The position numbers were made by a program, and so were the translations under genes. 64,000 nt of DNA from Patescibacteria group bacterium (GTDB lineage: Bacteria > Patescibacteriota > JABMPQ01 > JAHIRA01): contig JAHISJ010000026.1 in the NCBI GenBank assembly GCA_018818205.1, positions 29,994-93,993 of the forward strand, written 5' to 3'. How positions within the stretch are numbered: the first letter of the stretch is position 1; every line of letters starts with the position of its first letter. A model generated the notes under the pieces. The model was not told where the DNA came from. It searched no databases and saw only the letters and a program-made list of their open reading frames with translations. Shown piece after piece: positions 9,565-46,805 of this stretch.

Positions 9565-9995
9565 AAAGTGCATAAACAATAAATAAGCCGGATTCTGTAA
9601 CCTACGTTTTTCAAGTACTTAGCGCTTCTAAACATTTAAGCTAGGCTCTAACCTAGAAGCACTACGGGCACTAGTACCTAAAACTAGATGATAATCATTT
9701 ATCTAGCCCCGCTATTGCTAACGGAGTCAAACGACCTACCTATTTGGTCTTTCACCAGGTGGGGTTTGCCACTCATCCTGCTCACGCAGGAGAGAAGATA
9801 GTAGCTTCAAAAAGAAACATCTATCAACTTTTCACGTTTATCTAGCTTAAAAAAGCTAGATAGTATAGTCTCTGTGGCACTTTCCCTACCCCAACACTTT
9901 TTATGAAAAAGGTTGGGACGGTTGGCGTTACCAACCACCCTTATTATGGTGTCCGGACTTTCCTCCATGTACCGTGCTTGCACTGGTTCATGGCG
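9565..9995 (-). ncRNA. rnpB: RNase P RNA (bacterial type A)
   Basis: The minus strand carries GGAGGAAAGTCCGGACACC (P4 5' strand, CR-I; plus coordinates about 9950-9968), GGTAACGCCAACC and AGTGCCACAGAGAC (P10-P12 region), and ACAGAATCCGGCTTAT (CR-V, P4 3' strand; about 9581-9597). Ends are approximate. Confidence 0.75.
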
Positions 9996-10085
9996 ATTAT
10001 CTATATTGTGAATGCACATACCAAAAATGGTAGTAATACTATATCCAAATGGAGTCGATTTGTCAATGAAAATAATGCCTCTTCT

Positions 10086-15995: not shown

Positions 15996-16352
15996 TTACA
16001 CTAATTCTACTTGGCACACAAGTGCATTATCACCTTGTCTATTACCTATTTTTATCACTCGCGTCATTCCACTTGCTCCCTTGCTATATTTGGGCAGTAC
16101 TTCCTTTAAAAACTTCTTCTCAACTTCTTTATTGTTAAGCAGTGAATGTAGGATGCGCTTCTTATTCCGAGAATCTTGCGCTTTCATGGTCTTTGTGACT
16201 AACTGTTCATATGACGATGAAACAACTCGTGCTTTTGCAGACGTTAACTGAAGTTTCTCATTCATAATGAGATCATTCATAAGACTTCGCACCATAAGGT
16301 TGCGATGGCTTGATTGCTTTCTTAACTTATCTCTCTTCTTACGATGACGCAT
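15996..16352 (-). CDS. rplQ: 50S ribosomal protein L17
   Basis: MRHRKKRDKLRKQSSHRNLMVRSL..., the L17 N-terminal signature. Confidence 0.9.
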   Translation of the reverse strand: MRHRKKRDKLRKQSSHRNLMVRSLMNDLIMNEKLQLTSAKARVVSSSYEQLVTKTMKAQDSRNKKRILHSLLNNKEVEKKFLKEVLPKYSKGASGMTRVIKIGNRQGDNALVCQVELV

Positions 16353-17308
16353 TACTTTTCTTCCTCATGTAATGTTAAGTCGAGTTTTTTTAGCGACGAC
16401 TTTATCTCTTTTAGTGCAGTTTCACCAAAACCTTCAAGTGAAAGCAAATCCCCTTCTGAACGTGAAGCAAGATCACCAACAGTTCTAATCTTTGCTCTAT
16501 CAAGTGCATTTGATGTTCGCGTTGAAAGATTGAGTTTTTGCACAATAGTATCAAGGACTGTATCAGGTTCTTCTACGTCTTCTTTCTTCTCTTCCTCTTT
16601 CATCTCCTCTTCCTTCTTTGCAGATTTTGCCCCAGTAATAAATGCGAAGTGATCAACAAGTAGCTCAGATGACTTAGTTAATGCTTCACGAGGAGAAATA
16701 GTACCATCAGTTACAATAGAAATTCTTAGCTGATCATAGTCTGTCCTCTGTCCAACACGAATGTTTTGAATATCATAGCTTACCTTTTCTATAGGACAAT
16801 ACGATGAATCAATCAAGATCATACCAATGTCTAAATCTTCACCATTCTTTTTCTCGACTGGTACATATCCTCTACCCTTTTCTACCATAAGTTCAGCCTC
16901 AAAATGCGCATCTTTGTTTGTTGCAGTAGCTATAAGAAGATCCGGAGTAACTATCTCGACATCTGACGGTGTTTCAATATCCTTAGCAAGAATATCTTTC
17001 TTACCTTTTACATCGAGCTTAAGGGTAACAGGCTCATCGCTATGAACCTTAAGTCTAAGCATCTTTAAATTCAAGATAATTTCAATAACATCCTCTTTGA
17101 TATTATCAAGAGTATCAAATTCATGACTTGCGCCCTTAATTTTTACACCACTTACAGCAGCTCCAGGAAGTGATGAAAGAAGAACACGTCTAAGCGCATT
17201 GCCAAGGGTATGGCCATAACCAGGATAGCACGGTTCAACGATAAAAATACCTTCGTTGCCCTCTTCTTTTTCTAACTTGATTGTATTTGGAATAAGTATC
17301 GCCTCCAT
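16352..17308 (-). CDS. rpoA: DNA-directed RNA polymerase subunit alpha
   Basis: MEAILIPNTIKLEKEEGNEGIFIVEPCYPGYGHTLGNALRRVLLSSLPGAAV...; the C-terminal domain is present. True start Met is 20 codons inside the ORF-track ORF. Confidence 0.9.
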   Translation of the reverse strand: MEAILIPNTIKLEKEEGNEGIFIVEPCYPGYGHTLGNALRRVLLSSLPGAAVSGVKIKGASHEFDTLDNIKEDVIEIILNLKMLRLKVHSDEPVTLKLDVKGKKDILAKDIETPSDVEIVTPDLLIATATNKDAHFEAELMVEKGRGYVPVEKKNGEDLDIGMILIDSSYCPIEKVSYDIQNIRVGQRTDYDQLRISIVTDGTISPREALTKSSELLVDHFAFITGAKSAKKEEEMKEEEKKEDVEEPDTVLDTIVQKLNLSTRTSNALDRAKIRTVGDLASRSEGDLLSLEGFGETALKEIKSSLKKLDLTLHEEEK

Positions 17309-17380
17309 AGTATGTTTCTCCGATAAATTGTTAATAGCACTAAACAAACACTTTACTCGTGGTAGCACACACGTAAGACA

Positions 17381-18061
17381 CTAAACACGTCTTACTTTTT
17401 TAGATCTGCACCCATTGTGTGGCACCGGCGTTACATCTTGAATAACATTAATTGCAAGACCACCACTTGATAATGCCCGTACTGCAGCTTCACGTCCACC
17501 CCCAATGCCTTTTACAAAAACATCTACTTCTGAGAGGCCAGTATCTTTAACTTTATCAAGAACCGTACGGGTAATAATCGTCGCAGCGTATGGTGTTGCT
17601 TTCTTTGGCCCTCTGAAATTGGAAAGTCCTGCACTACCCCATGCTAGAGTATTTCCGTTTAAATCAGTAATAGTAACAATAGTATTGTTGTACGTAGATT
17701 TAATAAACACCTTCCCACGAGAAATCTTTCTGCGTACCTTTCCTTTCTTCTTTCGTTTCTTCTTTGGCTTTTCCTCTTTCTTTTCTTCTCTTTGAGAGTC
17801 CGTCTTTGGTCCTGAGCTCAGACCTTGAGAGGAGGAATCCTCTCCTCGAGTCTGAGCGACCTCGGAGTCGAGGTCAGAGCCTCGAACGGCCTTTTCTTGA
17901 GTCTTCTTTTCTTTCATTTCAGCATCCTTGCCTTTCTTCGCTTCCTTTGTATCTGATGTATCTGAAACTTCCTTCTTTGCAGCAGGTTTCTTCTTTTTTT
18001 CCTCCGACTCAGGAGTTTTAGAGTCAGGAGCTGTCTCTTCTTTTTTCTTGGAGTCGTTCAT
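17381..18061 (-). CDS. rpsK: 30S ribosomal protein S11 with a roughly 100-aa K/E-rich N-terminal extension
   Basis: The C-terminal 125 aa is canonical S11 (KVFIKSTYNNTIVTITDLNGNTLAWGSAG...TPVPHNGCRSKKVRRV). The N-terminal low-complexity extension has no internal Met near the core, so the extension is translated. Confidence 0.8.
   Translation of the reverse strand: MNDSKKKEETAPDSKTPESEEKKKKPAAKKEVSDTSDTKEAKKGKDAEMKEKKTQEKAVRGSDLDSEVAQTRGEDSSSQGLSSGPKTDSQREEKKEEKPKKKRKKKGKVRRKISRGKVFIKSTYNNTIVTITDLNGNTLAWGSAGLSNFRGPKKATPYAATIITRTVLDKVKDTGLSEVDVFVKGIGGGREAAVRALSSGGLAINVIQDVTPVPHNGCRSKKVRRV
17794..17890 (+). repeat. GC-rich hairpin-containing repeat, copy A, inserted in frame inside the rpsK N-terminal extension
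   Basis: Near-identical to 20213-20310. Contains the palindromes CTCGAGAGGAGG..CCTCTCCTCGAG and GACCTCGGAGTCGAGGTC. About 60% GC against about 40% background. Confidence 0.7.
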
Positions 18062-18078
18062 ATATCTTTAAACTTAGC

Positions 18079-18468
18079 TTAAGTCTTTTGAGCTGCTGGT
18101 TTTCTTCCGCTTCCTGCTGTCCGTCTAATATTTCCCCGAACGGTTCTGGAATTAGTCTTTGTTCGCTGTCCCCGTACAGGCAAATTTTTTGCATGTCTGA
18201 GGCCTCTATACGAACCAATTTCTCTCAGTCTCTTAATATTTAAAAGCTTTTGCTGTCTTAAATCTCCTTCTATCTTGTAGCTCTTTTCTATAATGCTTCT
18301 AAGCTTATTGATATCAGCATCACTCAATTCACGCGCCCTCATATTTGGATCGAGTGAAGCATCTTTGATGAGCTTTTTTGCTCGCACAAGACCAATACCA
18401 TAAATATAGGTAAGAGCTACCTCAATTCTTTTTTCTGACGGAATGTTTACTCCAGCAATACGTGCCAT
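18079..18468 (-). CDS. rpsM: 30S ribosomal protein S13
   Basis: MARIAGVNIPSEKRIEVALTYIYGIG... Confidence 0.9.
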   Translation of the reverse strand: MARIAGVNIPSEKRIEVALTYIYGIGLVRAKKLIKDASLDPNMRARELSDADINKLRSIIEKSYKIEGDLRQQKLLNIKRLREIGSYRGLRHAKNLPVRGQRTKTNSRTVRGNIRRTAGSGRKPAAQKT

Positions 18469-18482
18469 AAATACTTATATTA

Positions 18483-18596
18483 TTATCCCTGTCTTTGCTT
18501 ATGACGAGGATTTGAACAAATGACAAACAAGCACCTTTGGCGCTTAACTATTTTACACTGATCACAAATTCTTTTAACTGAGGCTCTTACCTTCAT
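18483..18596 (-). CDS. rpmJ: 50S ribosomal protein L36 (below the ORF-track size cutoff; found by hand)
   Basis: The minus strand translates to [37 protein letters not shown], a canonical 37-aa L36 with a C..C...C..H zinc ribbon. The ATG is 1 nt after the infA stop. Confidence 0.8.
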
Positions 18597-18597
18597 G

Positions 18598-18849
18598 CTA
18601 GTTTCTCTTTACAATTCGTCCCTTTGTTAGATCATAGGGACTGAGTTCTACGTCTACTGGATCGCCCGGGAGTACACGAATATAGTTCATCTGCATCTTC
18701 CCTGACACTTTTGCCATAATTGTATGACCATTTTCTAGTTCAACCTTAAACGTCGCATTGGGAAGCATCTCAAGGACTGTACCACTTACCTGAACAACAT
18801 CCTTCTTTTTTCCTGAATTGCTACCCGAATGCTTGTTTTTGTTTCGCAT
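18598..18849 (-). CDS. infA: Translation initiation factor IF-1
   Basis: ...[65 protein letters not shown]. Confidence 0.9.
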
Positions 18850-18995
18850 TGAACCTCTATTGCTACAACTTACATAGAATTAAATAATCCCTGCCACAAA
18901 ATAGCAGGTGATATCATACACCTCACCCGTATGCTACCGCTAATTTACGGGAGCGTCAAGGGACAAAGAGTGTATAACATAAAAATGATACCAAT

Positions 18996-20888
18996 TTACT
19001 GAGCGATGTCAAGCTCTAATTCAATTTTCTTGTCTAGCTTGGGTGCCTTTTTGACCCAAAAAGGCCAAAAGGTGACTTCTGAGGAGAGAATATGGGGATT
19101 TTCCGCTAAAAAAGTTTTTATCTCTTCTTTGCTTTTGCCCTTCAATTCTTCTCGAACGTACGTCTCATCAAAAGTATAGTAAAATGTTTTTTCTATCTTG
19201 AGCACAATACCCATAGATTTGTCGTTAAAATCAAAGTTCTGGAGCGAGGCCGTTACACCCTCATCGATTCCTGCCTGAAGAACTTTCTTTCCATCGGTAA
19301 GAGCCTTTTCAACTTCATATGCTACAATTTCCTCCATGTCTTGTTGATTAAACGTCATAGTAGACACACGCACCGTTATCTGTAAATCATATTCGGTCAC
19401 TTCCTCACCAACTTCATTACTTGCTACACGTTCTATTATCTCGGTCTTGATTGCATCTTTGAAGAAGTACTGATCCTTTGGAATACGTGAGACAAGTTCG
19501 TCGATGGCCTTTTTTTCAACTTGAGTCAAAAGCTCATTGCTTGCATTTTGCATGTCCTCCTCGCTAATGATTCTCTTCACCTGTTTTTCCCCACCAGCTA
19601 TAGGACTTAACGTCTCTGCATATATCGCTGCTTGTTTTGCACCGGTGAGTCCAGGAATAATAAGCTTTGCGCTCTCAATGTTGTACTCGGTTCCTGGTTG
19701 ATCGGCCTCTAATACAACTTGAAGTCTCCCCGGTATTGTCTCTCCATCTTGTACTGTCGCACCCGGTACGTTTACGTCATTGAGTACACGGTAGATAGAT
19801 CCATTTGGTGCCTGGAAACGCGTCTGCGCAACAAGTGGCTGCGGAGATGAAGAAAAGGTATTATTAATGACCACTTCTCCCCGTGCCTTAGTGCTAATGT
19901 CTTGCTCCCCGTACGCCTCAAAGTGCTTCTTATCGCTTGTTTTTTCTACATAAAGAAGCTCTCCGGGCAACTGATTATTTGCTTGATCGACCTCGTCCGC
20001 CGCTTCACGCACTAAAACATCGACTTGGGAAATAAATTGCTCTGTCTCCGGCTGAATAGAAATCACTGCTTTAGGAAGAAGAATAAAGAAAATAAGACCA
20101 GCAAGTCCAAAACTTATAAGGAAAAAGACAACAAAAAACGTAACGCTGATTCGTGGTAAGAATACATTTTTTGAACGAGCTTTCCTTTGCTTCTTGTTCT
20201 TCTTTTCTCTTCGAGAGTCGGACATAGGCCCTGAGCTCAGACCTCGAGAGGAGGGCTCCTCTCCTCGAGTCTGAGCGGCCTCGGAGTCGAGGACAGAGCC
20301 TCGAACAGCTTTCCTTTTTGGCTTCTTTTCTTCGCTTTCTTTTTTTGCAGTCTCTAAAATCGTACGCACCGTTTCTTTACTTTTTTCCTTCTCGGAGATT
20401 GATTCTTCTTTGGGAACGTCTTTTTCTTTCGGTACTGAAAGTCTAGGCTCAATTTCCTTTGATTTTCCTGAAAGATAATCAGTAACTTTAAGCAGGTGTT
20501 TCTCCCCGGGAACAGTCGCTGCGACTATCGGTATCGTCTTTGCGGTAGGTAATACTTCCTTCTTCTCGTCCTGTTGGTTTTCAGGTTCCTGCCCAACCGG
20601 TTTCTCCTCTTGGTCTAAAAGTGTACTCTCCATTGATGAAGGTACCTCTTTTCTTACATCAAGTCCCGCACGTTTTGAAAGGTTGAACGCAACATCATCA
20701 CTGACTACAACGACAATTCTCTTACCAACCGCATCAACCTGTCTTTTTAAAAGCTTAAGAGTTACCGTGCTTTGTGTTAACATTGATCTTTTAGGGATCA
20801 CTAAAACAATCGCATGCTCCTTAGTTTTGCGAATCTTATCAATAACCGCAGTTATTTCCTCGTCTATGTCTAAATAGAGGACTTTCAT
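18996..20888 (-). CDS. Hypothetical bitopic membrane protein (about 250-aa cytoplasmic part, one TM, about 350-aa extracytoplasmic domain) immediately downstream of ftsA
   Basis: 630 aa. The start overlaps the ftsA stop. The central K/E-rich linker carries repeat copy B. TM segment ISVTFFVVFFLISFGLAGLIFFILL. No FtsZ tubulin motifs. Confidence 0.5.
   Translation of the reverse strand: MKVLYLDIDEEITAVIDKIRKTKEHAIVLVIPKRSMLTQSTVTLKLLKRQVDAVGKRIVVVVSDDVAFNLSKRAGLDVRKEVPSSMESTLLDQEEKPVGQEPENQQDEKKEVLPTAKTIPIVAATVPGEKHLLKVTDYLSGKSKEIEPRLSVPKEKDVPKEESISEKEKSKETVRTILETAKKESEEKKPKRKAVRGSVLDSEAAQTRGEEPSSRGLSSGPMSDSRREKKNKKQRKARSKNVFLPRISVTFFVVFFLISFGLAGLIFFILLPKAVISIQPETEQFISQVDVLVREAADEVDQANNQLPGELLYVEKTSDKKHFEAYGEQDISTKARGEVVINNTFSSSPQPLVAQTRFQAPNGSIYRVLNDVNVPGATVQDGETIPGRLQVVLEADQPGTEYNIESAKLIIPGLTGAKQAAIYAETLSPIAGGEKQVKRIISEEDMQNASNELLTQVEKKAIDELVSRIPKDQYFFKDAIKTEIIERVASNEVGEEVTEYDLQITVRVSTMTFNQQDMEEIVAYEVEKALTDGKKVLQAGIDEGVTASLQNFDFNDKSMGIVLKIEKTFYYTFDETYVREELKGKSKEEIKTFLAENPHILSSEVTFWPFWVKKAPKLDKKIELELDIAQ
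20213..20310 (+). repeat. GC-rich hairpin-containing repeat, copy B, in frame inside the 630-aa gene
   Basis: GAGAGTCGGACATAGGCCCTGAGCTCAGACCTCGAGAGGAGGGCTCCTCTCCTCGAGTCTGAGCGGCCTCGGAGTCGAGGACAGAGCCTCGAAC, about 90% identical to copy A. Confidence 0.7.
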
Positions 20889-20889
20889 A

Positions 20890-22143
20890 TTAATACTGCA
20901 TTAGTTTAACGGCTCGCCTCAGTGTTCCATGCAAAATATCTTCTCCACCCGCAAGCTCAAGTGCAAGGTTTGCAAGAGCCATGGGAGTTACATCTTGCTG
21001 TGTGGTGAGCTTGCCTGATTCATCAACAATATTGGTTACATTTTCCGGTTGAATGAAGTGTACCTTTGGTTTTTTTGCAAATGCTAAATCTTTTGCCCAC
21101 CCGGTTGAAAGAAGTGAGGTCTTGATTCCGGGAAGTGCACTTCCCCCACCACAAAGAAGAATACGAGATGGAAGCAAGTCGTCCTGTGAAAATTCTTCAA
21201 GCGCAAGCTCAACACCAGAAACCCAGACACTGCAATCCGACTCAAAACTATCTTTAATACGATGCATCATCTCTGCCGGCAATTTTCCATATGCATATTT
21301 AATTTTTATTCGCTCAGCTTCCTCAAAACTGACTGAAAGCATATCTGAAAGTCGCTTAGTAAAAGCACGACCGCCAAGTCCATACATTTTTGTTCCCTCC
21401 AATCCCCCGTTCCTGACAACCGCAATATCAGTCGTACCACCACCCACATCAATAAAAATAGCATTGAATTCAAGAGAATCTTCTACACCCATACACCGAG
21501 CAACAGCGTAAGGCTCCGCAGTGATTGAAAGAATATCAAGGCCAAGCTCTGACGCAATTGTCTCAAGCGCGCCAAGATGAACCAGTGGCGCATATGCGTT
21601 AAATATTGATATTGAAACGTCTTTCCCCTGAAATCCTAAAGGATTGGTGACACGATACCCATCAATACGTACATCGACTATTGCCGCATTAATCAATCTA
21701 ACATCAATCTCAGAATGACCTGTCTCCCAAGATAGCTGTTTCCTTACCTGATCAAACGCCTTCCATTGTACTTTTTGAATAATATTCTTTAGTTCAGGAA
21801 GATCGATTTTTGATTTTGGTTTCACTCGCTCGTAATTTACTGTCGTTGTGCTTCCTTTAACCAACTCTCCCGCGATACCTAAAACAACCTGATCGGGCTG
21901 TTCTCCACACATTTCAACAGCCTTGGCAATCGCCTTTTCACACGATCTTACAACACCCTCAATATCACTCACCGCACCGGACTGCATATCACCAAGCGCT
22001 TGCACTTCTTTCCCAACACCAATAACAACACCTTTACCGTCTTCAACACGGAATATTAGTGCTTTAATAAGATGTGTCCCAATATCAAGAGCAAGTGCAA
22101 AATCAGGACTTCTTTTGTTTTTTAATATGGATAAAAAACCCAA
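20890..22143 (-). CDS. ftsA: Actin-like ATPase, cell division protein FtsA (FtsA/PilM family)
   Basis: ALDIGTHLIKALIF...GIAGE...DVGGGTTDIAVV...LCGGGSALPG actin-fold phosphate and adenosine motifs; 417 aa. Confidence 0.7.
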   Translation of the reverse strand: MGFLSILKNKRSPDFALALDIGTHLIKALIFRVEDGKGVVIGVGKEVQALGDMQSGAVSDIEGVVRSCEKAIAKAVEMCGEQPDQVVLGIAGELVKGSTTTVNYERVKPKSKIDLPELKNIIQKVQWKAFDQVRKQLSWETGHSEIDVRLINAAIVDVRIDGYRVTNPLGFQGKDVSISIFNAYAPLVHLGALETIASELGLDILSITAEPYAVARCMGVEDSLEFNAIFIDVGGGTTDIAVVRNGGLEGTKMYGLGGRAFTKRLSDMLSVSFEEAERIKIKYAYGKLPAEMMHRIKDSFESDCSVWVSGVELALEEFSQDDLLPSRILLCGGGSALPGIKTSLLSTGWAKDLAFAKKPKVHFIQPENVTNIVDESGKLTTQQDVTPMALANLALELAGGEDILHGTLRRAVKLMQY

Positions 22144-22274
22144 GATTGTATTTTATGTAGCTTCAAAATTGTATGCACAGTGCATACGTTCACCACAGGT
22201 GAGTATACCATACATTACTGTTTTTGTTGAGAAAAATACAATAAAAAATGCCCCCTTTTAATCAACTGTTACAG

Positions 22275-22310
22275 AAAAACAAAAAAAGGCAGCCTTACAA
22301 AAGACTGCCT
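22275..22310 (-). terminator. Intrinsic terminator after secreted-protein paralog 1
   Basis: Minus strand reads AAAGGCAGTCTTTTGTAAGGCTGCCTTTTTTTG. Confidence 0.6.
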
Positions 22311-22321
22311 TTAAAAAAACG

Positions 22322-23224
22322 TTAGTACGGATTTGAAACCGTATATTTTACCCTAAGATCATAGATCTTATTGTCATCTTTCTCAAACTCACCTCTAACA
22401 TAATAACTTGATGATTCATTTACAACCGTATGATCCATGGTTGTGCTCACCGTCGTGTCACCACCAGAGAAGGATGCACCTGTCTCAAGTGTTGCAACAG
22501 TACTACTTGTATAGTTGCTGTCAATTTTGTTGAGCCACGCCTTTACGCTCGTTGCCGCATCAAGATCATTTGCTCTCATGGAGAGTTCAGTAATCTTTGC
22601 ACCATTTGGAAGATTCACTGGCGCCGCATATGTTGTTACCGATGTTGCATCTGAGTTTGCGTCCAGAGCACCTCCTGTATAGGAATAGCCAACGATAGCT
22701 GAGTCTTCTGCTTTAAAAGCACTACCAGGAACACGCATATATGAAGTGTATTCAGCGGTTCCTGTGGTAAGACCATTTACTGTTGCACCTGTAAAATCAA
22801 CAGTCTTTCCACTGGTAAAGCTTACATCACCTTCTAGCGTGGTTTTCCCTTTGACTTGTAAATCATCGTTTACAATAACAGGCATTGGATTTTCTGCATC
22901 TGCTGCTTCCGGCCCAGACGTTGCACCGCGCCAAATCCGTCCGTCAATTCTCACATTATCACCAAACGCTACCGGGTTATCAACACCATCATTTGTGGTG
23001 ATATTGACAATAGTACCGTTAAAGAAGGTAACTCCACCTTCTCCTTGGCGACCAATCTTGACTGAATCCATCATCATGGTTCCATCAACATTAAAGAAGT
23101 CACCGTCTTTACCACCGAGTTTCTCAGTGATATTGATCTCTGAAGCTGCGTACACTGCTCCGGCAACAAAGAGTGTTGCGATGAGAGAGGTAAGCACGAC
23201 AGAGAAAATTGCTTTTCTCTTCAT
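22322..23224 (-). CDS. Secreted hypothetical protein, paralog 1 (signal peptide, cleavage after AVYA)
   Basis: MKRKAIFSVVLTSLIATLFVAGAVYA signal peptide. Shares GGVTFFNGTIVNxTTNDGVDNPVxFGDNVRIDGxIWRG with the adjacent paralog. Ends in ...SNPY. Confidence 0.55.
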   Translation of the reverse strand: MKRKAIFSVVLTSLIATLFVAGAVYAASEINITEKLGGKDGDFFNVDGTMMMDSVKIGRQGEGGVTFFNGTIVNITTNDGVDNPVAFGDNVRIDGRIWRGATSGPEAADAENPMPVIVNDDLQVKGKTTLEGDVSFTSGKTVDFTGATVNGLTTGTAEYTSYMRVPGSAFKAEDSAIVGYSYTGGALDANSDATSVTTYAAPVNLPNGAKITELSMRANDLDAATSVKAWLNKIDSNYTSSTVATLETGASFSGGDTTVSTTMDHTVVNESSSYYVRGEFEKDDNKIYDLRVKYTVSNPY

Positions 23225-23285: not shown

Positions 23286-24221
23286 TTAATACGGGCTTGT
23301 GAATTCATATTCAATCGTTATTCGTGCAATACCCATTGAAGTACTATCAGTCCCCTGCACATCAACCAGAAGCAAACAATAATTTTGAGTATTATCTACC
23401 ACTGTCTGGGTAATCGCAGGTGGTGTCCATGTTTGAAAAGTTGCAGAATCTGTTGAAGTCGCGGTACCAACAAGCACAGAGGAGGAGGGATCAGTTGGAT
23501 CAACTACTTTTCCAACAGTAACTTCAATTTGATTCCCGACTGTTGCATTATTATCAAGACCATACACCCAAAAATTGGTTATTTTAGCACCATGCGGCAG
23601 CTCTACAGGAGCTTCATAGAAAGCATTGGCTTCAGGGTTAAATAAGCCTCCTTCGTACTTCACATAATCGTTAATATAATCTCGTGATACTATCGCATTG
23701 CCAGGAATAGACACATACCCCTTTTGTGTATCCCAGCTTGGATTGCTTTTATTCACGTAATTCCCCAGATCTGAATTATTCGCTTTCTCGGCTAGTCCTG
23801 AGTCAACATAGGATGTATCAGCTTTGCCATCTACCGTTGGGTTAGAGAGTGCACCATCAATAGTTGTATTACCATATACCTTCAAGTCATCATTCACTTT
23901 GACCGGCATATCTTTAGCATCTGCACCAGCAAACGGTCCTGATTGTTCACCGCGCCAGATCTCACCGTCGATTCGAACGTTATCACCAAACGTGACGGGG
24001 TTGTCTACGCCGTCGTTGGTGGTTGAGTTGACGATGGTACCATTAAAGAAGGTAACACCACCGGTGCCTTGTTTACCTATGTAGACAGAGTCAAATCTGC
24101 CGGTGTTGTTTACAACGAGTTCGTCGTTGTAGGTGATAGTACCTGCATACACTGCGCCTGCTACGAAGAGTGTTGCGAAGAGGGTGGTGGCTATCACGGA
24201 GAAGATTGTCTTTTTCTTCAT
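23286..24221 (-). CDS. Secreted hypothetical protein, paralog 2
   Basis: MKKKTIFSVIATTLFATLFVAGAVYA signal peptide. N-terminal 110 aa about 70% identical to paralog 1; divergent C-terminal half ending ...TSPY. Confidence 0.55.
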   Translation of the reverse strand: MKKKTIFSVIATTLFATLFVAGAVYAGTITYNDELVVNNTGRFDSVYIGKQGTGGVTFFNGTIVNSTTNDGVDNPVTFGDNVRIDGEIWRGEQSGPFAGADAKDMPVKVNDDLKVYGNTTIDGALSNPTVDGKADTSYVDSGLAEKANNSDLGNYVNKSNPSWDTQKGYVSIPGNAIVSRDYINDYVKYEGGLFNPEANAFYEAPVELPHGAKITNFWVYGLDNNATVGNQIEVTVGKVVDPTDPSSSVLVGTATSTDSATFQTWTPPAITQTVVDNTQNYCLLLVDVQGTDSTSMGIARITIEYEFTSPY

Positions 24222-31495: not shown

Positions 31496-32077
31496 TCATT
31501 GCACGAGACATTTTTTACACTTCTCTATCATTAACTGCTGTGCTTCTTCTTCAAACTTCTGAGCATCGAGAAGTAATTGTGACCCATGCTCAAACGTCTG
31601 TGCACCATCTTCACCTGCCAAAAGGTTGTCAAAACCCTTTACGTACGACTCATATCCCTCTGCTTGAAACGTATACTTTGAAATAAGTTTTTCTTGAATG
31701 CCTACCGATGTACCTTTGGCTGAAATGGTACCCATCTTTTCCTGAGCACGCGACGCCTCTTTGCTAGCCTCATTGAAAAGCTCTTTTCTCTGCCTCCAGA
31801 CTGAACGTCTAGCTTCATTCTCTTCCCCCTGGTCTTTTTCTTGAAGGTTGCCGTCTTTTTCCATTAGGTCAGCAATAGCTAGCCCCTCATGTATATACAC
31901 TTCTTTGTTATACTCTTCAACAAACAAGACAACGTCTCGCGTTTGAAAGTAACCCTCGAGCGCAGGTCCCAGTTGAAACCTGTACATCACTGCCCCAAAA
32001 ACTACAAAAAGAATGACGATACCACTACTGATTATTTTCTGTCTTTTTAGTATACTCTCTTCTTTAGAAGAAATCAT
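31496..32077 (-). CDS. Membrane-anchored hypothetical protein (N-terminal TM, charged helical ectodomain)
   Basis: 193 aa with TM segment IISSGIVILFVVFGAVMY. Its start overlaps the stop of the upstream ATPase gene. Confidence 0.45.
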   Translation of the reverse strand: MISSKEESILKRQKIISSGIVILFVVFGAVMYRFQLGPALEGYFQTRDVVLFVEEYNKEVYIHEGLAIADLMEKDGNLQEKDQGEENEARRSVWRQRKELFNEASKEASRAQEKMGTISAKGTSVGIQEKLISKYTFQAEGYESYVKGFDNLLAGEDGAQTFEHGSQLLLDAQKFEEEAQQLMIEKCKKCLVQ

Positions 32078-33567
32078 TACGTATCGTTATCCTTCTGCAC
32101 TGACTGAAATGCCTTCTTAAACGGTTTATGAGAATCATCGTTAACCTTAGATTGGGAGTGGGATTGATTCTGTCTCGGCTGAGTATCGCTGCGATTTTGA
32201 TACTTTTTTGGTTCTCGTTTTTTTTGATACTCATTGGGTCTTGACCTTGGACTTGACTTTGGGGATTCCATTTCACCCTTTGTCGGTTCCGTACTATCTG
32301 TAAACCCACTAAAGCGAGCAATTTTCCCCTCAATTATTTCTCGTTTTTTTGCATACCGTTCACGAGAGATACGAATAATTTTATCCTGAAATCCATCTGG
32401 CTCCCATGTTGGTGCAATAGACTGAGCACTAAACGCCTGGGACGCCACACCATTTATCATAAGTTTTAAGTACACATTATACTTAGTCAGATTTACGAGA
32501 TGGTTTGCGGTAAACACCGGTTCAAACTCTGTCTCAAACATCTCTGAATCTTGTGCACCAATTCTAAAAACAATCATAGTCCCCACATTGCCAAACACCG
32601 CATCGTACACCGTCTCCGGAAGCTGGTTAATATACTGATGGGCCATAATTAAATTTAATCGATACTTACGCGCTTCAGATAAAATGTCAGCAAAACTGTC
32701 CGTAGCAAAATTTTGGAACTCATCAACGTAGAGATAGAAGTCCACACGCTTTTCCTCCTGAATATCAACACGACTCATTGCCGCAAGTTGTAGTTGCGTA
32801 ATCATCATAGCACCAAAAAGCGCAGAGGCGTCTTCACCGACTTTTCCTTTGGATAGGTTTAAAAGCAAGATCTTCTTTGAATCAATAACATCACGCATAT
32901 TTATGGTCGACTTTGGTTGTCCAACAATGTTTCTGATAAGTGAAATCGACAAAAACTGACCAACCTTATTCTGAATTGGCGCAATTGCCTCTTGCTGAAA
33001 CTTGTCGGGATACCGCGAGTACTCGTCTACCCAAAAAGATTTTACCACTGGGTCAGTAACCTTACTTATAACCTTTTTTCTAAACGACTTGTCCGTAAGC
33101 ATACGCATGATACCAAGAAGCGTACTCCCCGGGTAATCAAGCAAAGCAAGAATGGTATTCCGAAGCACATACTCAAGCCGTGGTCCCCACGAATCTGCCC
33201 AAATCTTTTTAAAAACACCTAAAAGTCCTGATGCAACAAGATGTTTGTATTCAGGATTGACGCTTTCCATCACATTAAACCCAAGAGGATAATTAATATC
33301 CCCGGCATCAAAATATATGACGTCGTTTACTCTATTTGACGGCACATATTGAAGCATCTTGTGAGCAAAGTCGCCATGAGGGTCAACGACGCAAAGACCA
33401 TTGCCTTTCCGTATGTCGCTAATAACCATATTCTCAAGAAAAGTCGTCTTTCCCATTCCGGTTTTTCCAATGACATACATATGACGTCTTCTGTCATCCC
33501 TGCGAATACCAAATTTGGTAAACTTTCCTCTATAATTTGTCTCTCCGAGTATTGTTACATCATCCAT
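32077..33567 (-). CDS. P-loop ATPase of the VirD4/TraG/TrwB (type IV coupling protein) and FtsK-HerA superfamily
   Basis: Walker A VIGKTGMGKTT, Walker B FYLYVDEF, a C-terminal HQYINQL motif and a basic/low-complexity tail. No N-terminal TM helices of its own. Confidence 0.55.
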   Translation of the reverse strand: MDDVTILGETNYRGKFTKFGIRRDDRRRHMYVIGKTGMGKTTFLENMVISDIRKGNGLCVVDPHGDFAHKMLQYVPSNRVNDVIYFDAGDINYPLGFNVMESVNPEYKHLVASGLLGVFKKIWADSWGPRLEYVLRNTILALLDYPGSTLLGIMRMLTDKSFRKKVISKVTDPVVKSFWVDEYSRYPDKFQQEAIAPIQNKVGQFLSISLIRNIVGQPKSTINMRDVIDSKKILLLNLSKGKVGEDASALFGAMMITQLQLAAMSRVDIQEEKRVDFYLYVDEFQNFATDSFADILSEARKYRLNLIMAHQYINQLPETVYDAVFGNVGTMIVFRIGAQDSEMFETEFEPVFTANHLVNLTKYNVYLKLMINGVASQAFSAQSIAPTWEPDGFQDKIIRISRERYAKKREIIEGKIARFSGFTDSTEPTKGEMESPKSSPRSRPNEYQKKREPKKYQNRSDTQPRQNQSHSQSKVNDDSHKPFKKAFQSVQKDNDT

Positions 33568-33597: not shown

Positions 33598-34878
33598 TTA
33601 CATTGGGACAGGCAGATCCGGTGGTGGCTCTGCTTTTCTGGTATCAAGACGCTCAAGTGTTGGCGTCCGCACACTCTCATAGGGGAAGTGATACATTGTA
33701 GCAATTTCCTCGGTACTCATAACATAGGCATTGCCACCCATCCACGGATCCCGCCCTTTAAATCCTTTCATAATTAACCGTTTTCTTCTTGGAACACGCA
33801 TTTTTTTAAAGTAGTCAACCGATGTCCAGTTTTTGGTGTTCGGTTTCAAACCATTGAGATTCTCCGTAGTAAATATGCGCATGAACATAAACATAGGCAT
33901 CATACCTTTTGGCTTATTAAAAACCTCGTTTTTGCCAACATATACAAACCGCATCTTGACAAAAAACGCAATCTTGGAGATACTCTCCTCTATTGCTTTA
34001 ATAACTTCCCGTTCTCCTGGAGAAAGGAAGGACATCTCCATACCCTCTTCATCTTCAATCTCAGAAGGAGGAAACCCAAGTGCATTATCAATATTCTTCT
34101 CTACATTATGCCACCCTCCCAAAACGTACCGAGAAACCCAAGATTCAGACGATTTTGGTGAACGGTTCATAAGTTCATCTACAACCGCTAACGCTTTTTT
34201 TTGCCACTTCTCGTCCCACCGTGGCTGTATGATTATCTGAAACCACAACTGTTCACCGGGATTTAATCCACTCATTGCCTCAGTAAGCGTTGAGACGGGG
34301 TCAATAAAACCCTTTTCAATATCTTCAGCAAACGACTTGTACGTACGGATAGGATAGGGATCTGGACGCACTAGAGCTATTTCTGTTCCATACATATCAT
34401 ACTCCTCATTTGGATACGTGTCAGGCGCAAAAGTTACATAGTCCTCGACAAGCATGATTTCAGCCTCTGGATAATACGCATAAATCATTGCCTCAAGTGA
34501 TTCTCTGTACTTGTTAGGCATGCGCATAAGAAACCGCACCTGGCCATTAATACCTACTATCTCAAGGCTTACACTGAGCTGAAACTCGCCATACCAGTAC
34601 TTTTCATACATATTTGGAGGATGTTCAATAGAGTGAATAGCAGTAATAATTTGCTCCATTGATTTTGGATCCTTGATATTATCAGCAGGAATAGTAATGG
34701 CAATTAAGTCATAGTCAATAGAGAGCGCGAATTTAATCTGCCTTCTAAAAAGAAATAGCTGAAATCCCAAATACAAAAAAAGTGGTATTAAAATAAACCA
34801 CGTATATGAAATTACTAAAGAGATATAACCCCAAAGCTCGATTAAGCCCGGTCCAACTTCTTGAAGCATACTACTCAC
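33598..34878 (-). CDS. Polytopic membrane protein, hypothetical, partner of the VirD4-like ATPase
   Basis: 426 aa with an N-terminal TM pair (WFILIPLFLYLGFQLFLF) and a large soluble domain. Separated by 30 nt from the ATPase gene on the same strand. Confidence 0.5.
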   Translation of the reverse strand: MSSMLQEVGPGLIELWGYISLVISYTWFILIPLFLYLGFQLFLFRRQIKFALSIDYDLIAITIPADNIKDPKSMEQIITAIHSIEHPPNMYEKYWYGEFQLSVSLEIVGINGQVRFLMRMPNKYRESLEAMIYAYYPEAEIMLVEDYVTFAPDTYPNEEYDMYGTEIALVRPDPYPIRTYKSFAEDIEKGFIDPVSTLTEAMSGLNPGEQLWFQIIIQPRWDEKWQKKALAVVDELMNRSPKSSESWVSRYVLGGWHNVEKNIDNALGFPPSEIEDEEGMEMSFLSPGEREVIKAIEESISKIAFFVKMRFVYVGKNEVFNKPKGMMPMFMFMRIFTTENLNGLKPNTKNWTSVDYFKKMRVPRRKRLIMKGFKGRDPWMGGNAYVMSTEEIATMYHFPYESVRTPTLERLDTRKAEPPPDLPVPM

Positions 34879-38155: not shown

Positions 38156-39445
38156 ATGCAACCTTCAAAAACAGCGTTCATTATAGGCTCAGGATTTTCT
38201 AAAGATCTTTGTGGACTACCTACCTTAACTGGCGAAAATAGCTTAAGTTCATTAGTTATTGAAAAACTTCAAGAACATGAAAACGAATCAGTCAAACTAT
38301 TCATTAATAGTATCTCAAGCGAAATAAAGGATAACATTGAACACTTAATGAGCTATCTTATCCAGGATAATCCATGGTCAAATGAAACAGAAAAGCACTT
38401 AGCAAAAGCCTCGTATCATGTAATTACGGATTTAATACATAAAGTACTTGATGAAAATGATCAGGAACTGAAAACTGAAGAAGAATACATTCAACAACTT
38501 TTTTCATTTTGGCACAAATATGAAACTGACGTCATTAGTTTTAATTATGATACTTTAATTGAAAAATATACTCAAAAATTCTTAAAAGTGAAAAAGGTAG
38601 AAACCCCTGAAAATAAAAGAAATGCAATAAAAACAGTACTCATAATAGCTGACGAGCATAATAAATTAGCACAAGAAAAAGAAATACATATCTATAAAAA
38701 AAACAACATACGTTATATTTACTTAAAAAATAGAAGTATAGTAACTGATGGATTGCTCTCTCAAATTCATAGTAAACTTTACGGAGAAACTGCTCCAGAA
38801 AAGTCTAGTTATATAAACCCTTTGATAAATAAGTTGAAAGAAAAAGTAACTCTCAAAGATATTTATCAGATTCCTATACCTAATGTTAATGAAAGAGTAG
38901 GAGGTCTGTGGCTAAATAGCAGTAGAAATAACTCATTAAAACTTCTAAAACTGCATGGATCAACAAACTGGCTTTATTCAGGTGACGAAAATCTTACTGG
39001 TGAAGATATTCGTCATATTCCTCTTGATCGAAAATCAAGCAAAATAAGCCTCTCTGGTCTTGTTAGGTATATTATTCCTCCAGTCTTAGATAAAAGTCCT
39101 TTTTATAAAAACAATTCTTTAAAAACCCAATGGACTAAAGCAAGAGAAGCGCTCGAAACTGCCAATGATATTATTATTATTGGATATTCTTTCCCAGAAA
39201 CAGATCTCTCAACAAGATTCATGATCCAGCAAGCACTTAAAGAAAATAAAAAAGCAACTATACATCTAGTATCTAGACCACAAAAAGTAGTAGAAGGTGG
39301 AAAAGAAAAGAAACAAACAGAAGAAGAAATACGTGAAGAATCTGCAGAAAACTTGAAGGAGTTTTTAAAACATAACCTTATAAAAGTTTATGTTCCTGAA
39401 AAAAGTTCAATAGTTGAAACTTGTAAATTGCTTAAGAAAAAATAA
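38156..39445 (+). CDS. SIR2-like (SIR2_2/DHS-like NAD-binding) family protein, candidate defense-type NADase
   Basis: N-terminal glycine-rich loop AFIIGSGFSKDLCGLPT; a central HG motif (LKLHGSTNWLY); and a C-terminal IIIIGYSFPETD motif. These are the three hallmark blocks of the SIR2_2 family. About 30% GC, clearly below its neighbours. Lies next to tRNA-Lys. Confidence 0.5.
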   Translation: MQPSKTAFIIGSGFSKDLCGLPTLTGENSLSSLVIEKLQEHENESVKLFINSISSEIKDNIEHLMSYLIQDNPWSNETEKHLAKASYHVITDLIHKVLDENDQELKTEEEYIQQLFSFWHKYETDVISFNYDTLIEKYTQKFLKVKKVETPENKRNAIKTVLIIADEHNKLAQEKEIHIYKKNNIRYIYLKNRSIVTDGLLSQIHSKLYGETAPEKSSYINPLINKLKEKVTLKDIYQIPIPNVNERVGGLWLNSSRNNSLKLLKLHGSTNWLYSGDENLTGEDIRHIPLDRKSSKISLSGLVRYIIPPVLDKSPFYKNNSLKTQWTKAREALETANDIIIIGYSFPETDLSTRFMIQQALKENKKATIHLVSRPQKVVEGGKEKKQTEEEIREESAENLKEFLKHNLIKVYVPEKSSIVETCKLLKKK

Positions 39446-39480: not shown

Positions 39481-39556
39481 TGGTGGGCGTTAAAGGATTC
39501 GAACCTTTGACCTTCTCCTTAAAAGGGAGCTGCTCTACCAACTGAGCTAAACGCCC
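39481..39556 (-). tRNA. tRNA-Lys (anticodon UUU), CCA encoded
   Basis: Minus strand reads GGGCGTTTAGCTCAGTTGGTAGAGCAGCTCCCTTTTAAGGAGAAGGTCAAAGGTTCGAATCCTTTAACGCCCACCA. It has a 7-bp acceptor stem, D arm GCTC/GAGC, anticodon loop CTTTTAA and a T arm with TTCGAAT. Confidence 0.85.
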
Positions 39557-40435: not shown

Positions 40436-41557
40436 TTATGAAAACAGTTTAGACCAGAAGCTTTTTTCTTTTACAACACTTGTCTCGCCTTCTTCTTTTT
40501 GGAGAGCTTTAACAAGTTCTTTCTCTTTTTTGGTCAGCTTTCTTGGTGTTACTACATTGACGTGAACTCTGAGATCTCCTACTCGACCGGTACTGGGATT
40601 TTGAAAGCCTTTATCCGAGAGTCTATGAATATACCCTGATTGTGTTCCCGGTTCAATAGCAACTTCTAGTGTTTCATCAAAATAAGTAAGCTCTACCGCA
40701 CTCCCAAGCGCTGCCTGTGTAAAACTAATAGGTAAGAGTGCTACCAAATCATCACCATCTCTATCAAGTTTTTTATGCTTTTGTACATGAACCGTTGCAT
40801 AGAGATTGCCCGGTGAGCCACCACTTCTACCAGCTTCACCTTTGCCTGGAATCTCGATTGTTTGGCCATCTGCAATACCTTTTGGTACCGCAATAGAAAC
40901 ATCAACATCTGCATTTACTCTTCCATCTCCACCACACGTAGTACAGGGAGTTTTTGGCTTTTTACCTTCGCCTTTACAAGATGGACATGTTTTTGATTGG
41001 GCAAACGCCCCTAACACTGTCTGCATCTGTTGGGTAACCTTGCCTGCACCGTTACACGTACTACAGGTCTCAATGGGAGTCCCCGGCTCAGCGCCGTTCC
41101 CGTGACAGTTTTCACATGACGTTCGTTTATATAAACTGACATCTCGCTTTACACCAAAATATGATTCTTTAAACGAGATAGTAAGATCGACTTTAATATC
41201 ACTCCCTTGAACCGCACCACTTTGACTTCTCCGTCTCCCTCCACCAAAAAAGTCATCAAAGATGCTACTGAAATCAAAACCCTCGAAGTTTGCATTAAAC
41301 CCTTGTGCTCCACCAAAACCAGCACCACCTCCGGGCGCGCCTGCTTGATCAAACGTTTGGCCATATTGATCATACTGCTGCCGTTTTTGGTTATCAGAAA
41401 GAACCTGATACGCTGAGTTTATCTCTTTAAATTTTTCCTCGTCTCCATCTTTTTTGTCAGGATGATATTTGTGGGCGAGTTTTCTATACGCCTTTTTTAT
41501 CTCATCGTCTGACGCGTCTTTGGAGACGCCGAGGGTGTTGTAGTGGTCGTTTGGCAT
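40436..41557 (-). CDS. dnaJ: Chaperone DnaJ
   Basis: J domain with HPD ([14 protein letters not shown]), G/F-rich linker, and four CxxCxGxG zinc-finger repeats. Confidence 0.9.
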
Positions 41558-41663
41558 GGAATAATGTTAGGGGAAAATGGGGGTTGTGTAAAGACGGGTT
41601 TCAAGCCCGTCTTCAAAACCAGTCAGGGCGCCCACAAGGGGCGCCCCTACATACCGCCAAAAG

Positions 41664-44139
<2,476 letters not shown>

Positions 44140-44971: not shown

Positions 44972-45000
44972 GTCAAAAGACTTGACAAAACAAAATATAT
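44972..45000 (+). promoter_or_regulatory. Near-consensus sigma70 promoter P1 (TTGACA-N17-TATAAA with extended -10 TG) for gene A
   Basis: CTTGACAAAACAAAATATATGATGTATAAAG. The -35 forms an inverted repeat with an upstream TTGTCAAG. Confidence 0.6.
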
Positions 45001-45068
45001 GATGTATAAAGTAAGGCACATTTCGTGCGTTTCATATATGTTCATTTTTCAAAAGGAGAGGAAAATTG

Positions 45069-45659: not shown

Positions 45660-45694
45660 GACTGGTCATAAATTGTACAAAAATTAATTGTACA

Positions 45695-45860
45695 GACTCC
45701 CCTTCTACCAGCTTGGTGGATAGGGGTTTTTGTTTTGGGAAATTCTTACCCCCTCCCCTTTACTAAGGGGAGGGTTAGGGTGGGGTTCTTTCTACGCTAT
45801 ACTTACATACACCCCCTCCTAACCTCCCCCTTGGAAAAGGGGGAGGGACCATAACAAATC
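45695..45860 (+). repeat. Inter-cassette repeat unit R1: terminator hairpin with T-run, then GC-rich spacer with two hairpins
   Basis: ACTCCCC..GGGGTTTTTGTTTTGG terminator; then CCTCCCC-TTTACTAA-GGGGAGG and CCTCCCCC-TTGGAAAA-GGGGGAGG hairpins. About 85% identical to R2 over roughly 110 nt. Confidence 0.65.
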
Positions 45861-45862
45861 AC

Positions 45863-45890
45863 TTGACAAAACAAAACATATAGTGTATAA
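45863..45890 (+). promoter_or_regulatory. Sigma70 promoter P2 (TTGACA-N17-TATAAA) with a leader about 90% identical to P1
   Basis: CACTTGACAAAACAAAACATATAGTGTATAAAGTAAGGCAC, followed by a conserved leader and SD AAGGAG. Confidence 0.6.
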
Positions 45891-45939
45891 AGTAAGGCAC
45901 TTATTGTGCATTCACACGTTCTTTTTCAAGGAGTGAAAA

Positions 45940-46589: not shown

Positions 46590-46624
46590 GTTCAAAAAAG
46601 AATTGAAAAACGATTAACACGAGA

Positions 46625-46800: not shown

Positions 46801-46805
46801 AAAAC

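Follow-up and report, generated by a model that had tools for sequence, protein, structure and literature searches.

The closest described analogues of the element reported here are the Rickettsia palindromic elements (RPE; Ogata et al. 2000, 2002), which are summarised in two later articles (PMC10969869, PMC3733652) and occupy dozens of unrelated genes in frame (PMC10969869). Comparable behaviour is documented for repetitive extragenic palindromic (REP) sequences, whose GTAG and CGTC super-families include copies inside genes of Rickettsia conorii and Opitutus terrae (Di Nocera et al. 2013, PMC3733652) and whose CGTC members occur without a dedicated transposase (PMC3733652). Transposable elements of the miniature inverted-repeat type (MITEs) that fuse in frame with bacterial genes include Coxiella QMITE1, ERIC and the Correia-type elements (PMC10969869, PMC5896051). 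Here we describe two copies of a GC-rich palindromic element in a 64,000-nt stretch (the window, within which all positions are numbered) of contig JAHISJ010000026.1, from a Patescibacteria group bacterium of the candidate phyla radiation (CPR). One copy lies in rpsK, the gene for ribosomal protein S11, and the other in a 630-aa open reading frame (ORF) downstream of ftsA. Very probably, both are copies of a non-autonomous, GC-rich palindromic repeat of the REP/RPE/MITE type that forms a large CPR family and tolerates being translated.

The likenesses to RPE are extensive. Both are palindromic repeats of ~100-150 bp in the small, AT-rich genome of a host-dependent bacterium, and both are dispersed, with many copies in frame in unrelated housekeeping genes, where they add a hydrophilic peptide without destroying the protein. 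Neither has a transposase of its own. The window copies have the length and long hairpin of RPE (104 nt, minimum free energy (MFE) of -47 to -50 kcal/mol), and in-frame residence extends from S11 and the 630-aa ORF to eight Pfam-verified hosts elsewhere. However, the CPR family occurs in another phylum (Patescibacteria), which, rather than a sequence comparison, sets it apart from RPE-1 to RPE-10. Its copies are mostly intergenic and use several frames rather than encoding one conserved peptide, and its 33-nt core spans phylum-level lineages, while RPE families do not extend beyond a single genus. Judged by analogy, then, the CPR family resembles RPE most closely and is not a member of them. 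Provisionally, we place it as a new family of a known kind, palindromic repeats that can be protein-coding, outside any named family.

The first-pass annotation of this DNA, made from the letters alone, had described two copies about 90% identical, with ~60% GC in a ~40% GC genome, sharing frame and orientation inside two functionally unrelated minus-strand genes. All of this holds (Table 1). With refined boundaries the copies are identical at 91 of 104 positions without gaps, and blastn aligns them at 89.2% identity over 102 nt (17786-17887 versus 20205-20306; E 1.6e-28). Window GC is 0.402, and the two 80-nt islands of highest GC in the window are the element copies (0.61 and 0.66; window mean 0.40, sd 0.06). 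The most negative folding energies per nucleotide in the window belong to both copies and to an unrelated hairpin pair at 41566-41665. Folding of both strands, which the annotation had recommended, gives MFEs of -46 to -50 kcal/mol on either (copy 1, -46.8 on the plus and -47.3 on the minus strand; copy 2, -49.4 and -50.5); the core hairpin folds at -19.5 kcal/mol in copy 1 and at -21.2 in copy 2. Compared with dinucleotide shuffles, the copies reach only modest z-scores (-1.3 to -2.9), since strong folding comes with any GC content this high. A repeat search, blastn-short and an nhmmer profile of the family core found no third copy in the window, and none was found in ~10 kb beyond each window end. 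A Logan contig from a separate sequencing run (L141, SRR6514274_414711) is 100% identical to window positions 17844-22468. Its end coincides exactly with the first base of the rpsK core hairpin, which is to be expected when a community-shared repeat interrupts the de Bruijn graph.

Table 1. Positions of the element copies, their host genes and other features in the 64,000-nt window.
Feature	Position	Strand	Details
RNase P RNA, bacterial class A	9572-10009	-	Rfam, 182.8 bits
rpsK (ribosomal protein S11), host gene 1	17381-18061	-	226 aa; Pfam Ribosomal_S11 at aa 116-225
Candidate target-site duplication TTTTCTT	17781-17787, repeated 17892-17898		7-nt direct repeat around copy 1
Element copy 1	17788-17891	+ (family-core orientation)	104 nt; GC 0.59; minus-strand translation gives S11 residues ~57-92
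Core hairpin, copy 1	17843-17875	+	TCCTCGAGTCTGAG-CGAC-CTCGGAGTCGAGGTC; core pattern 17845-17871; nhmmer E 5e-12
630-aa ORF downstream of ftsA, host gene 2	18996-20888	-	Pfam GlxA beta-barrel at aa 334-423
Element copy 2	20207-20310	+	104 nt; GC 0.63; minus-strand translation gives residues ~193-228 of the 630-aa ORF
Core hairpin, copy 2	20262-20294	+	TCCTCGAGTCTGAG-CGGC-CTCGGAGTCGAGGAC; core pattern 20264-20290; nhmmer E 3e-11
Tandem paralogous ORFs, 300 and 311 aa	22322-23224 and 23286-24221	-	Signal-peptide-like N-termini; 73-74% identical DNA stretches (D1, D6)
tRNA genes, two	39484-39556 and 52337-52409	-	Rfam
Third GC-rich island	41566-41665		GC 0.61; MFE/nt -0.45; two perfect hairpins, AAGACGGG..CCCGTCTT and GGGCGCCC..GGGCGCCC
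Three repeats of a 58-100-nt upstream region, ~0.9 kb apart	44974-46855		TTGACA...TATAAAG promoter-like motif (D3, D5)
Hairpin CCCCTCCCC...GGGGAGGG (D10)	at 45750 and 46693		

The hallmark of the family is an imperfect hairpin of 33-34 nt, TCCTCGAGTCTGAG-CGAC-CTCGGAGTCGA, with 14-nt arms and a 4-nt loop. RNAfold returns the same fold copy after copy (UC-C-UCGA-G-UCUGAG-[CGAC]-CUCGGA-G-UCGA-A-GA), including a U.G wobble, a C.A mismatch and a central G.G mismatch, the last of which is conserved because GAGTC stands on the same strand in both arms. Weaker related copies follow the same logic (CTTCGAG(T/C)CTGAGC...CTCAGAG(T/C)CGAAG), with a GAGCC variant kept on both arms, and natural variants suit the fold, CUCAGA restoring U-A and UUCGGA giving G.U. 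The loop of some copies holds an additional hairpin of 10-30 nt. Flanks vary between subfamilies, but the 5' and 3' flanks are mutually complementary (CCTGCCTGC/GCAGGCAGG, GGTCTTCGAC/GTCGAAGACC and GYCCT..TCGAC/GTCGA..AGGRC), and the total unit is about 100-130 nt. Duplex energies of own versus swapped flanks were used instead of covariation statistics, the flank classes differing in register; flanks pair better with their own partner than when swapped between copies (-15.9 versus -12.6 kcal/mol, p 1e-5).

The window copies belong to a derived subfamily, distinguished by repair of the C.A mismatch (CCUCGA/UCGAGG) and by GGTC/GGAC in place of AGAC. Upstream, an inverted copy of the left arm (GCTCAGACCTYGAGAGGAGG) allows an alternative long hairpin, and this is the first of two internal palindromes that the first-pass annotation had reported. 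Both palindromes are present, but the first is imperfect (one mismatch and one G.U) and the second is perfect in copy 1 only. The GC-rich repeat lies where it had been placed. What is conserved family-wide is one 33-nt hairpin, which extends over the first palindrome's right arm and the whole second palindrome. A 3' tail, CAGAGCCTCGAACGG, is common to the window copies and two metagenome copies (L023 and L100). The window elements start with CTCTTYGAGAG and finish with CCTCGAACRG, complementary at 8 of 9 positions by eye.

Orthologues of the host genes lack the segments. A syntenic relative (locus L135, 12.8 kb) carries ftsA, a 560-aa ORF, infA, rpsM, rpsK, rpoA, rplQ, rplM, rpsI and so on, and in these 12.8 kb the core has no match with up to 3 mismatches. 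The 560-aa orthologue aligns to the N-terminal ~80 residues of the 630-aa ORF and to everything from its transmembrane helix onward, with a gap where the element sits in the variable linker. Since the orthologue aligns on both sides, the element in the 630-aa ORF is certainly coding. Comparison of rpsK orthologues, a check suggested at first reading, gives the same picture: the segment is absent in relatives including L135. The closest S11 proteins (82% identical in the domain, from a search of 5.8 billion clusters) lack the peptide, and it occurs in none of the other 119 S11 homologues among the matches listed. S11 relatives also have a K/E-rich N-terminal extension, starting MAE(D/E)K, so the extension is ancestral. 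A profile of the 40-aa peptide (HMMER) retrieved from 1.84 billion representative proteins only the 630-aa ORF itself and a few spurious repeat proteins. The K/E-coding similarity of the flanks is of low complexity, and by these alignments the segments are insertions rather than ancestral sequence. More generally, S11 proteins of the source clade tend to have a K/E-rich N-terminal extension, of 35-100 aa.

The copies also appear to be read as protein. The 630-aa ORF begins two bases after ftsA (20890-22143; FtsA Pfam). Its conserved N-terminal domain is followed by the variable linker with the element, then by a predicted transmembrane helix, and its C-terminal region is again conserved. In S11, the only start candidates upstream of the domain are M1 and M49, and both precede the element, which therefore lies within the coding sequence. 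An AAGGA motif lies 7 nt upstream of M49 (ATG at 17915-17917), and it is with M49 that the protein of an NCBI record (P0001, 'Patescibacteria group bacterium', 178 aa) begins. There is no start codon between the element and the S11 domain, and the next start-like codon, GTG at aa 118, is within the domain. The N-terminal extension is K/E-rich and predicted to be disordered. In an AlphaFold2 model residues 1-110 are coil, and the predicted local distance difference test score (pLDDT) is lowest (43-49) precisely over aa 51-96, compared with ~90 over the S11 fold. The model thus suggests that the copy occupies the least confident part of a disordered tail and would be tolerated there. The predicted tryptic peptides of the read-through products include GSDLDSEVAQTR and GEDSSSQGLSSGPK for S11 and GSVLDSEAAQTR for the 630-aa ORF.

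Both elements are on the same strand and in the same reading frame, and encode AVRGS(D/V)LDSE(V/A)AQTRGE..SS.GLSSGP. Each full 104-nt element has two open frames, and the single frame that is open in both copies is the one used. The shared frame and orientation are accounted for by stop codons in the other frames and are what selection would leave. Roughly two-thirds of the codon differences between the copies are nonsynonymous, a pattern that reads as that of unconstrained DNA rather than of a conserved peptide. As a separate observation on the S11 locus, gene order at 16352-18468 is rpsM-rpsK-rpoA-rplQ, with no rpsD between rpsK and rpoA.

Beyond the window, an 18-mer from the element (CCTCTCCTCGAGTCTGAG) was scanned against one genome per GTDB species. 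It matched 12 loci, nine of which extend into a ~37-nt module, CCTCTCCTCGAGTCTGAGCGACCTCGGAGTCGAWGAC, or a version of it with a mid-module hairpin insert; the 3' half of the module lay outside the query, yet it is conserved. Eight of the nine module loci are from five CPR metagenome-assembled genomes (MAGs): three Saccharibacteria, one Kuenenbacteria and one Uhrbacteria. The Saccharibacteria MAG JACPKF01 has four copies on two contigs, with ~125 nt in common. A second scan, of JGI/ENA metagenome contigs with the pattern CTCGAGTCTGAGC-N5-35-GAGTCGA, returned at least 120 loci, with ~110 distinct full-core copies after ~15 GC-rich chance matches were dropped. Many of the samples are groundwater and sediment, including 0.1-µm groundwater filtrates. 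The pattern did not demand the inner GACCTCG, the flanking CTC or AGAC/TGAC. Among the matches listed, 88 of ~110 copies have the 7-nt spacer GACCTCG or a one-base variant, and essentially all copies have CTC before the core and AGAC or TGAC after it. With the core in over 100 unrelated loci, apparently of other CPR bacteria, other in-frame hosts and orthologues without the segment, the initial idea of a MITE/REP-like structured repeat that tolerates read-through is supported.

Copy density is uneven, with two copies in 84 kb here and about one exact-pattern copy per 100-200 kb in long contigs. IMG/VR yielded one chance match and no family member, and the plasmid and phage collections yielded no family match. 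A full-text literature search, incomplete in coverage, for palindromic elements of CPR/Patescibacteria or for the core sequence found no description. The family is apparently undescribed, and we regard its novelty as provisional.

Several individual loci merit mention. The ninth module locus (L004, CAZQEI010000005.1) has a copy with a 15-nt loop insert in a 36%-GC MAG labelled 'uncultured Gammaproteobacteria'; it is the sole apparently non-CPR host, and mis-binning, mis-labelling or real transfer could explain it. In L023, L052, L067, L104, L120, L124, L131 and others, strings of short GC-rich modules lie around or near the core, with the words CTTCGAG, CCTGAGC/GCTCAGG, CCGAAGG and GTCGAAC, which suggests that elements may grow by reiterating palindromic sub-units. 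Between thyA and folA of Saccharibacteria JACPKF01 (L002:6100-6330), outer half-cores CTCTTCGAGTCTGAGC ... AGAGTCGAATGACCGG surround additional hairpins together with an entire inner element, a nesting that looks like insertion of one copy into the loop of another.

In genomes with scarce non-coding DNA, most copies (76-85% among the matches listed) are intergenic. By a strict criterion of at least 50 ORF codons on each side, 17 of 114 listed copies are inside ORFs and 97 are not, and greedy gene calls place 21 of 89 inside genes. Orientation, again among the matches listed, is balanced between co-directional genes (26 versus 26), with eight further copies between convergent and eight between divergent genes, and is 13 versus 8 inside genes. 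Pfam confirms as in-frame hosts IF-2, a class II aminoacyl-tRNA synthetase, PGK, MraW/RsmH, an RluD-type pseudouridine synthase, enolase, a Cu-oxidase_4 (PgeF-like) protein and topoisomerase I (TopA); a RecJ-like protein and a glycosyltransferase are also hosts, by inspection only. The IF-2 copy is inside the GTP_EFTU domain, between switch I and DTPGH. Four frames and both orientations are used in hosts (..FDSEVAQTRG.., ..LRLRGRSDSR.., ..LLESERPRSRR.. and ..SSSLSDLGVE..). No protein gene is linked to the element. In an all-against-all comparison of 745 ORFs within 4 kb, no neighbour family recurs in more than 4 of ~100 loci, those few being housekeeping genes; no transposase is among the recurring neighbours, and precomputed annotation of the window neighbourhoods contains no transposase Pfam.

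These observations could be explained as follows. Copies would multiply within a genome and, seemingly, between lineages, mobilised in trans by an enzyme for which the conserved hairpin is the recognition site, and would persist mainly in intergenic DNA. Coding insertions would persist when their length is 3n, the frame open and the protein region tolerant, and would then be translated as about 33-37 hydrophilic residues. Such persistence would be eased by the GC-rich core, which leaves five of six frames stop-free. In the window, one copy may have spawned the other, 2.4 kb away, or both may derive from a lost master; the survivors would be those in disordered linkers, with an open frame and 3n length, and the translated segments would be near-neutral for the host. 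An 'intein-less insertion module', also raised at first reading, found no support as a mechanism.

Several points weigh against this explanation. Only two neighbouring copies occur in ~84 kb of genome (window plus flanks), and because they are few and adjacent, local duplication is inseparable from transposition. No mobilising enzyme, parent insertion sequence (IS) or convincing terminal inverted repeats were found, and target-site duplication is absent in the L007/L010, L129, L029/L128, L104/L131 and IF-2 comparisons. At the window copies, 7-nt repeats do flank the element (Table 1; around copy 2, TTCTTTT at 20200-20206 and TTCCTTT at 20311-20317), and 104 + 7 = 111 nt, or 37 codons, is arithmetic that would suit a duplicated target. 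These repeats sit in T/C-rich low-complexity sequence, however, and as target-site duplications they are unproven. Family members were fetched with exact core patterns, which under-samples diversity and makes the invariance partly a matter of construction. Gene calls are ORF heuristics, by which out-of-frame interruptions of genes would score as intergenic, and we infer translation of the element from ORF continuity. Finally, the near-invariance of the core across CPR phyla, conserved mismatches included, exceeds what a purely selfish element would need and hints at a function or at conserved recognition machinery.

The other known systems show both likenesses and differences. Like REP sequences, the element has a GC-rich imperfect hairpin of 20-40 nt (33 nt in the CPR core) with conserved unpaired foot bases, and by crude ORF calls it is mostly extragenic; in REP, occasional genic copies encode 20-30 extra residues. 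As with CGTC REPs, a dedicated transposase was not found nearby. Its foot, however, reads CTC...AGAC/TGAC (GTCT/GTCA on the complement; GGTC/GGAC in the window copies) rather than GTAG or CGTC, the hairpin is embedded in a self-complementary unit of 100-130 nt, and copy number per genome is apparently low. A gene for a REP-associated tyrosine transposase (RAYT, Y1) was not seen within 4 kb of ~100 loci, although single-copy RAYTs may lie elsewhere, and by the same crude calls the CPR copies have no preference for convergent or 3' positions. With MITEs the element shares its short length, non-autonomy, strong secondary structure and capacity to sit translated in ORFs. In a classical MITE the terminal inverted repeats are clear, the target site is duplicated and a parent IS can be recognised, whereas the inverted repeats of the CPR element are weak, other subfamilies have other ends, and the doubtful duplications are confined to the window copies. 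No parent IS was found among the fetched loci, and there is no plasmid, phage or IMG/VR member. The palindrome-associated transposable elements (PATE) of IS200/IS605 and hairpin-recognising HUH systems also have an imperfect, mismatched hairpin with a short unpaired motif by its foot, and most subfamilies here likewise have no target duplication. In contrast, a TnpA or TnpB gene was found neither among ~100 neighbourhoods nor where the window is annotated, and orientation relative to gene direction, a proxy for replication direction, is 26:26, where single-strand transposition would predict bias. By analogy, the missing duplication elsewhere and the conserved unpaired foot motif are weak pointers to REP/RAYT and IS200/IS605 logic, against which the absence of orientation bias and of a nearby Y1 transposase can be argued.

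IF-2 offers presence and absence at a single codon. The 551-aa IF-2 of locus L113, which has a 98%-identical database twin (P0127), is 90% identical in amino acids to that of a Candidatus Wildermuthbacteria genome (P0128, GCA_016181405.1) once insertion columns are removed, and P0128 reads GAYQADLQGEKITF where L113 reads GAYQVEVPQEAKSRASETSRGTLRQAQVFDSEVAQTRGGDTASNGRSITF. In DNA, the flanks are 92-94% identical and a 108-nt phase-0 block, its register uncertain by a few codons, is missing in P0128. A block at the same codon and phase occurs in the IF-2 of P0131/L144, from another clade in which all nearest relatives are empty. The L113 and P0131/L144 blocks are identical at 106 of 108 positions, with flanks 74-77% identical, and synonymous differences number 1 in 36 element codons versus 28 in 60 downstream host codons (Fisher p 2e-6). 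Other IF-2 relatives have loop variants, QVEVPGGQT and QVEVPWAPKSAEALREGGQT, that may be decayed remnants. Two readings fit: repeated recent entry at the same site, or an old element under nucleotide constraint with repeated loss. On either, the element is a dynamic entity distinct from the host gene.

Because a near-identical block stands at one codon in two clades that differ at about half of their synonymous sites, the 33-nt hairpin could be more specialised than a dispersed repeat. It might be the handle of a CPR-wide, protein-less, site-selective (homing-like) mobile system that works through conserved host or helper machinery, or else a structure selected at the nucleotide level inside mRNAs. 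We think this unlikely on balance. The same IF-2 gene of L113 has a second short family-like insert, CTCTTCGAGTCTGAGCCTCAGAGCCGAAGG (L113:1844-1882; nhmmer E 2e-4), which may encode ..GSEAQTRR.. and supply the remaining ~10 aa of length difference to the empty relative.

The low synonymous divergence of the IF-2 block would also be accounted for by nucleotide-level constraint on a functional structured RNA, whether as a cis-regulatory hairpin, as an antisense or small RNA, as a site of processing or stabilisation, or as a self-cleaving ribozyme, in which case the coding copies would be incidental or regulatory. From one phylum-level CPR lineage to another the core hardly changes, even at its unpaired and mismatched positions, while the basal stem varies between copies yet stays self-complementary and the loop accepts extra hairpins. 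The core strand is slightly more stable than its complement in 68 versus 42 of 110 copies among the matches listed (p 0.002). On the other hand, the unbiased orientation (26:26 outside and 13:8 inside genes) means that no RNA strand is consistently sense, and essential coding regions hold copies in both orientations. At gathering thresholds, Rfam 15 matches nothing at the elements in the window and nine genome loci, and at permissive thresholds (E <= 5-10) on short excerpts, including eight small metagenome loci, it returns only chance matches of miRNA/snoRNA type. The U-tract of an intrinsic terminator is absent, and threading of ribozyme cores by hand failed. For a hepatitis delta virus (HDV)-like fold, a J4/2-like GUCGAAUGAC and an L3-like CCUCUCC can be pointed out, but there is no consistent P1 and a variable insert falls where HDV allows none; a hammerhead core was rejected for lack of CUGANGA...GAAA. 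A functional RNA thus seems improbable to us as the primary identity of the family.

Orientation independence and intergenic preference would suit a role at the DNA level. The hairpin, or a cruciform, might be a site recruited by the host for a CPR-wide methyltransferase, nucleoid protein, recombinase or replication factor, with multiplication being secondary. It contains two same-strand GAGTC (GANTC) sites, CTCGAG and TCGA; GAGTC on both arms maintains the G.G mismatch, related variants keep GAGCC on both, and a conserved core stands between freely varying flanks. Such a role would resemble proposals for REP and bacterial interspersed mosaic elements (BIME) and for the CcrM-associated repeats of Caulobacter. 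Density, however, is low and uneven (two copies per 84 kb here, about one per 100-200 kb in long contigs), the syntenic relative has no copy in 12.8 kb, it is difficult to see the copies within IF-2, PGK or S11 as placed sites, and no candidate binding protein was identified. We consider this very unlikely.

A protein-level module, in which a ~35-aa peptide is kept as a functional motif or linker or, as the first-pass annotation offered as its alternative, was copied between K/E linkers by gene conversion, could draw on the shared frame and orientation of the window copies and on their similar K/E-rich contexts 2.4 kb apart, but this and a shared ancestral peptide are scarcely credible given that the composition is foreign, the DNA core is mostly non-coding elsewhere and uses four different frames when coding, differences between the window copies are mostly nonsynonymous, the peptide profile recovers essentially the 630-aa ORF itself, orthologues lack the peptide, the region is predicted to be disordered, and stops in the other frames account for the shared one. 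Two further candidates were rejected. A diversity-generating retroelement (template repeat/variable repeat, TR/VR) does not fit differences that extend beyond adenines, the lack of a reverse transcriptase and the mid-gene position of both copies, and the matches are single per locus or irregularly spaced rather than arrayed as CRISPR repeats.

CPR/Patescibacteria genomes are ~1 Mb in size and are regarded as highly streamlined. If the segments are, as we favour, copies of a dispersed palindromic repeat that tolerates translation, then these tiny genomes carry a lineage-wide family of structured selfish repeats even in essential genes, where they would add 30-40 residues to proteins such as S11, the IF-2 GTPase domain, PGK and topoisomerase I. 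A second group of host-dependent bacteria, unrelated to Rickettsia, would thereby show the 'protein-coding palindrome' phenomenon of the latter, and the family may account for some unexplained insertions in CPR proteins. In practical terms, the element breaks assemblies, can mislead gene-start calls and could serve as a lineage marker. Conservation of the core, together with the same-site insertions in IF-2, makes hairpin recognition and exchange between CPR species testable questions.

The RNase P RNA and the two tRNAs are the sole Rfam matches above gathering thresholds in the window. The third GC-rich island falls between ORFs 40436-41557 and 41664-43775; its sequence is not related to that of the element family, and it resembles a terminator. 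The tandem ORFs at 22322-23224 and 23286-24221 are probably a duplicated surface-protein gene, and the region 44974-46855 resembles an array in which small paralogous genes, each with conserved regulatory DNA, stand in tandem. Two sets of genes resemble those for type IV secretion and coupling proteins, one at ~31-34 kb (ORFs 32077-33567 and 33598-34878) and the other beyond the window start (L138:18842-20387). Their domains are TrwB_AAD_bind, TraG-D_C, DUF87 and DUF8128, and the sets may represent the type IV secretion system (T4SS) or competence-like machinery of Patescibacteria. An ORF with a SIR2_2 domain lies near the type IV secretion-like genes, at 38156-39445.

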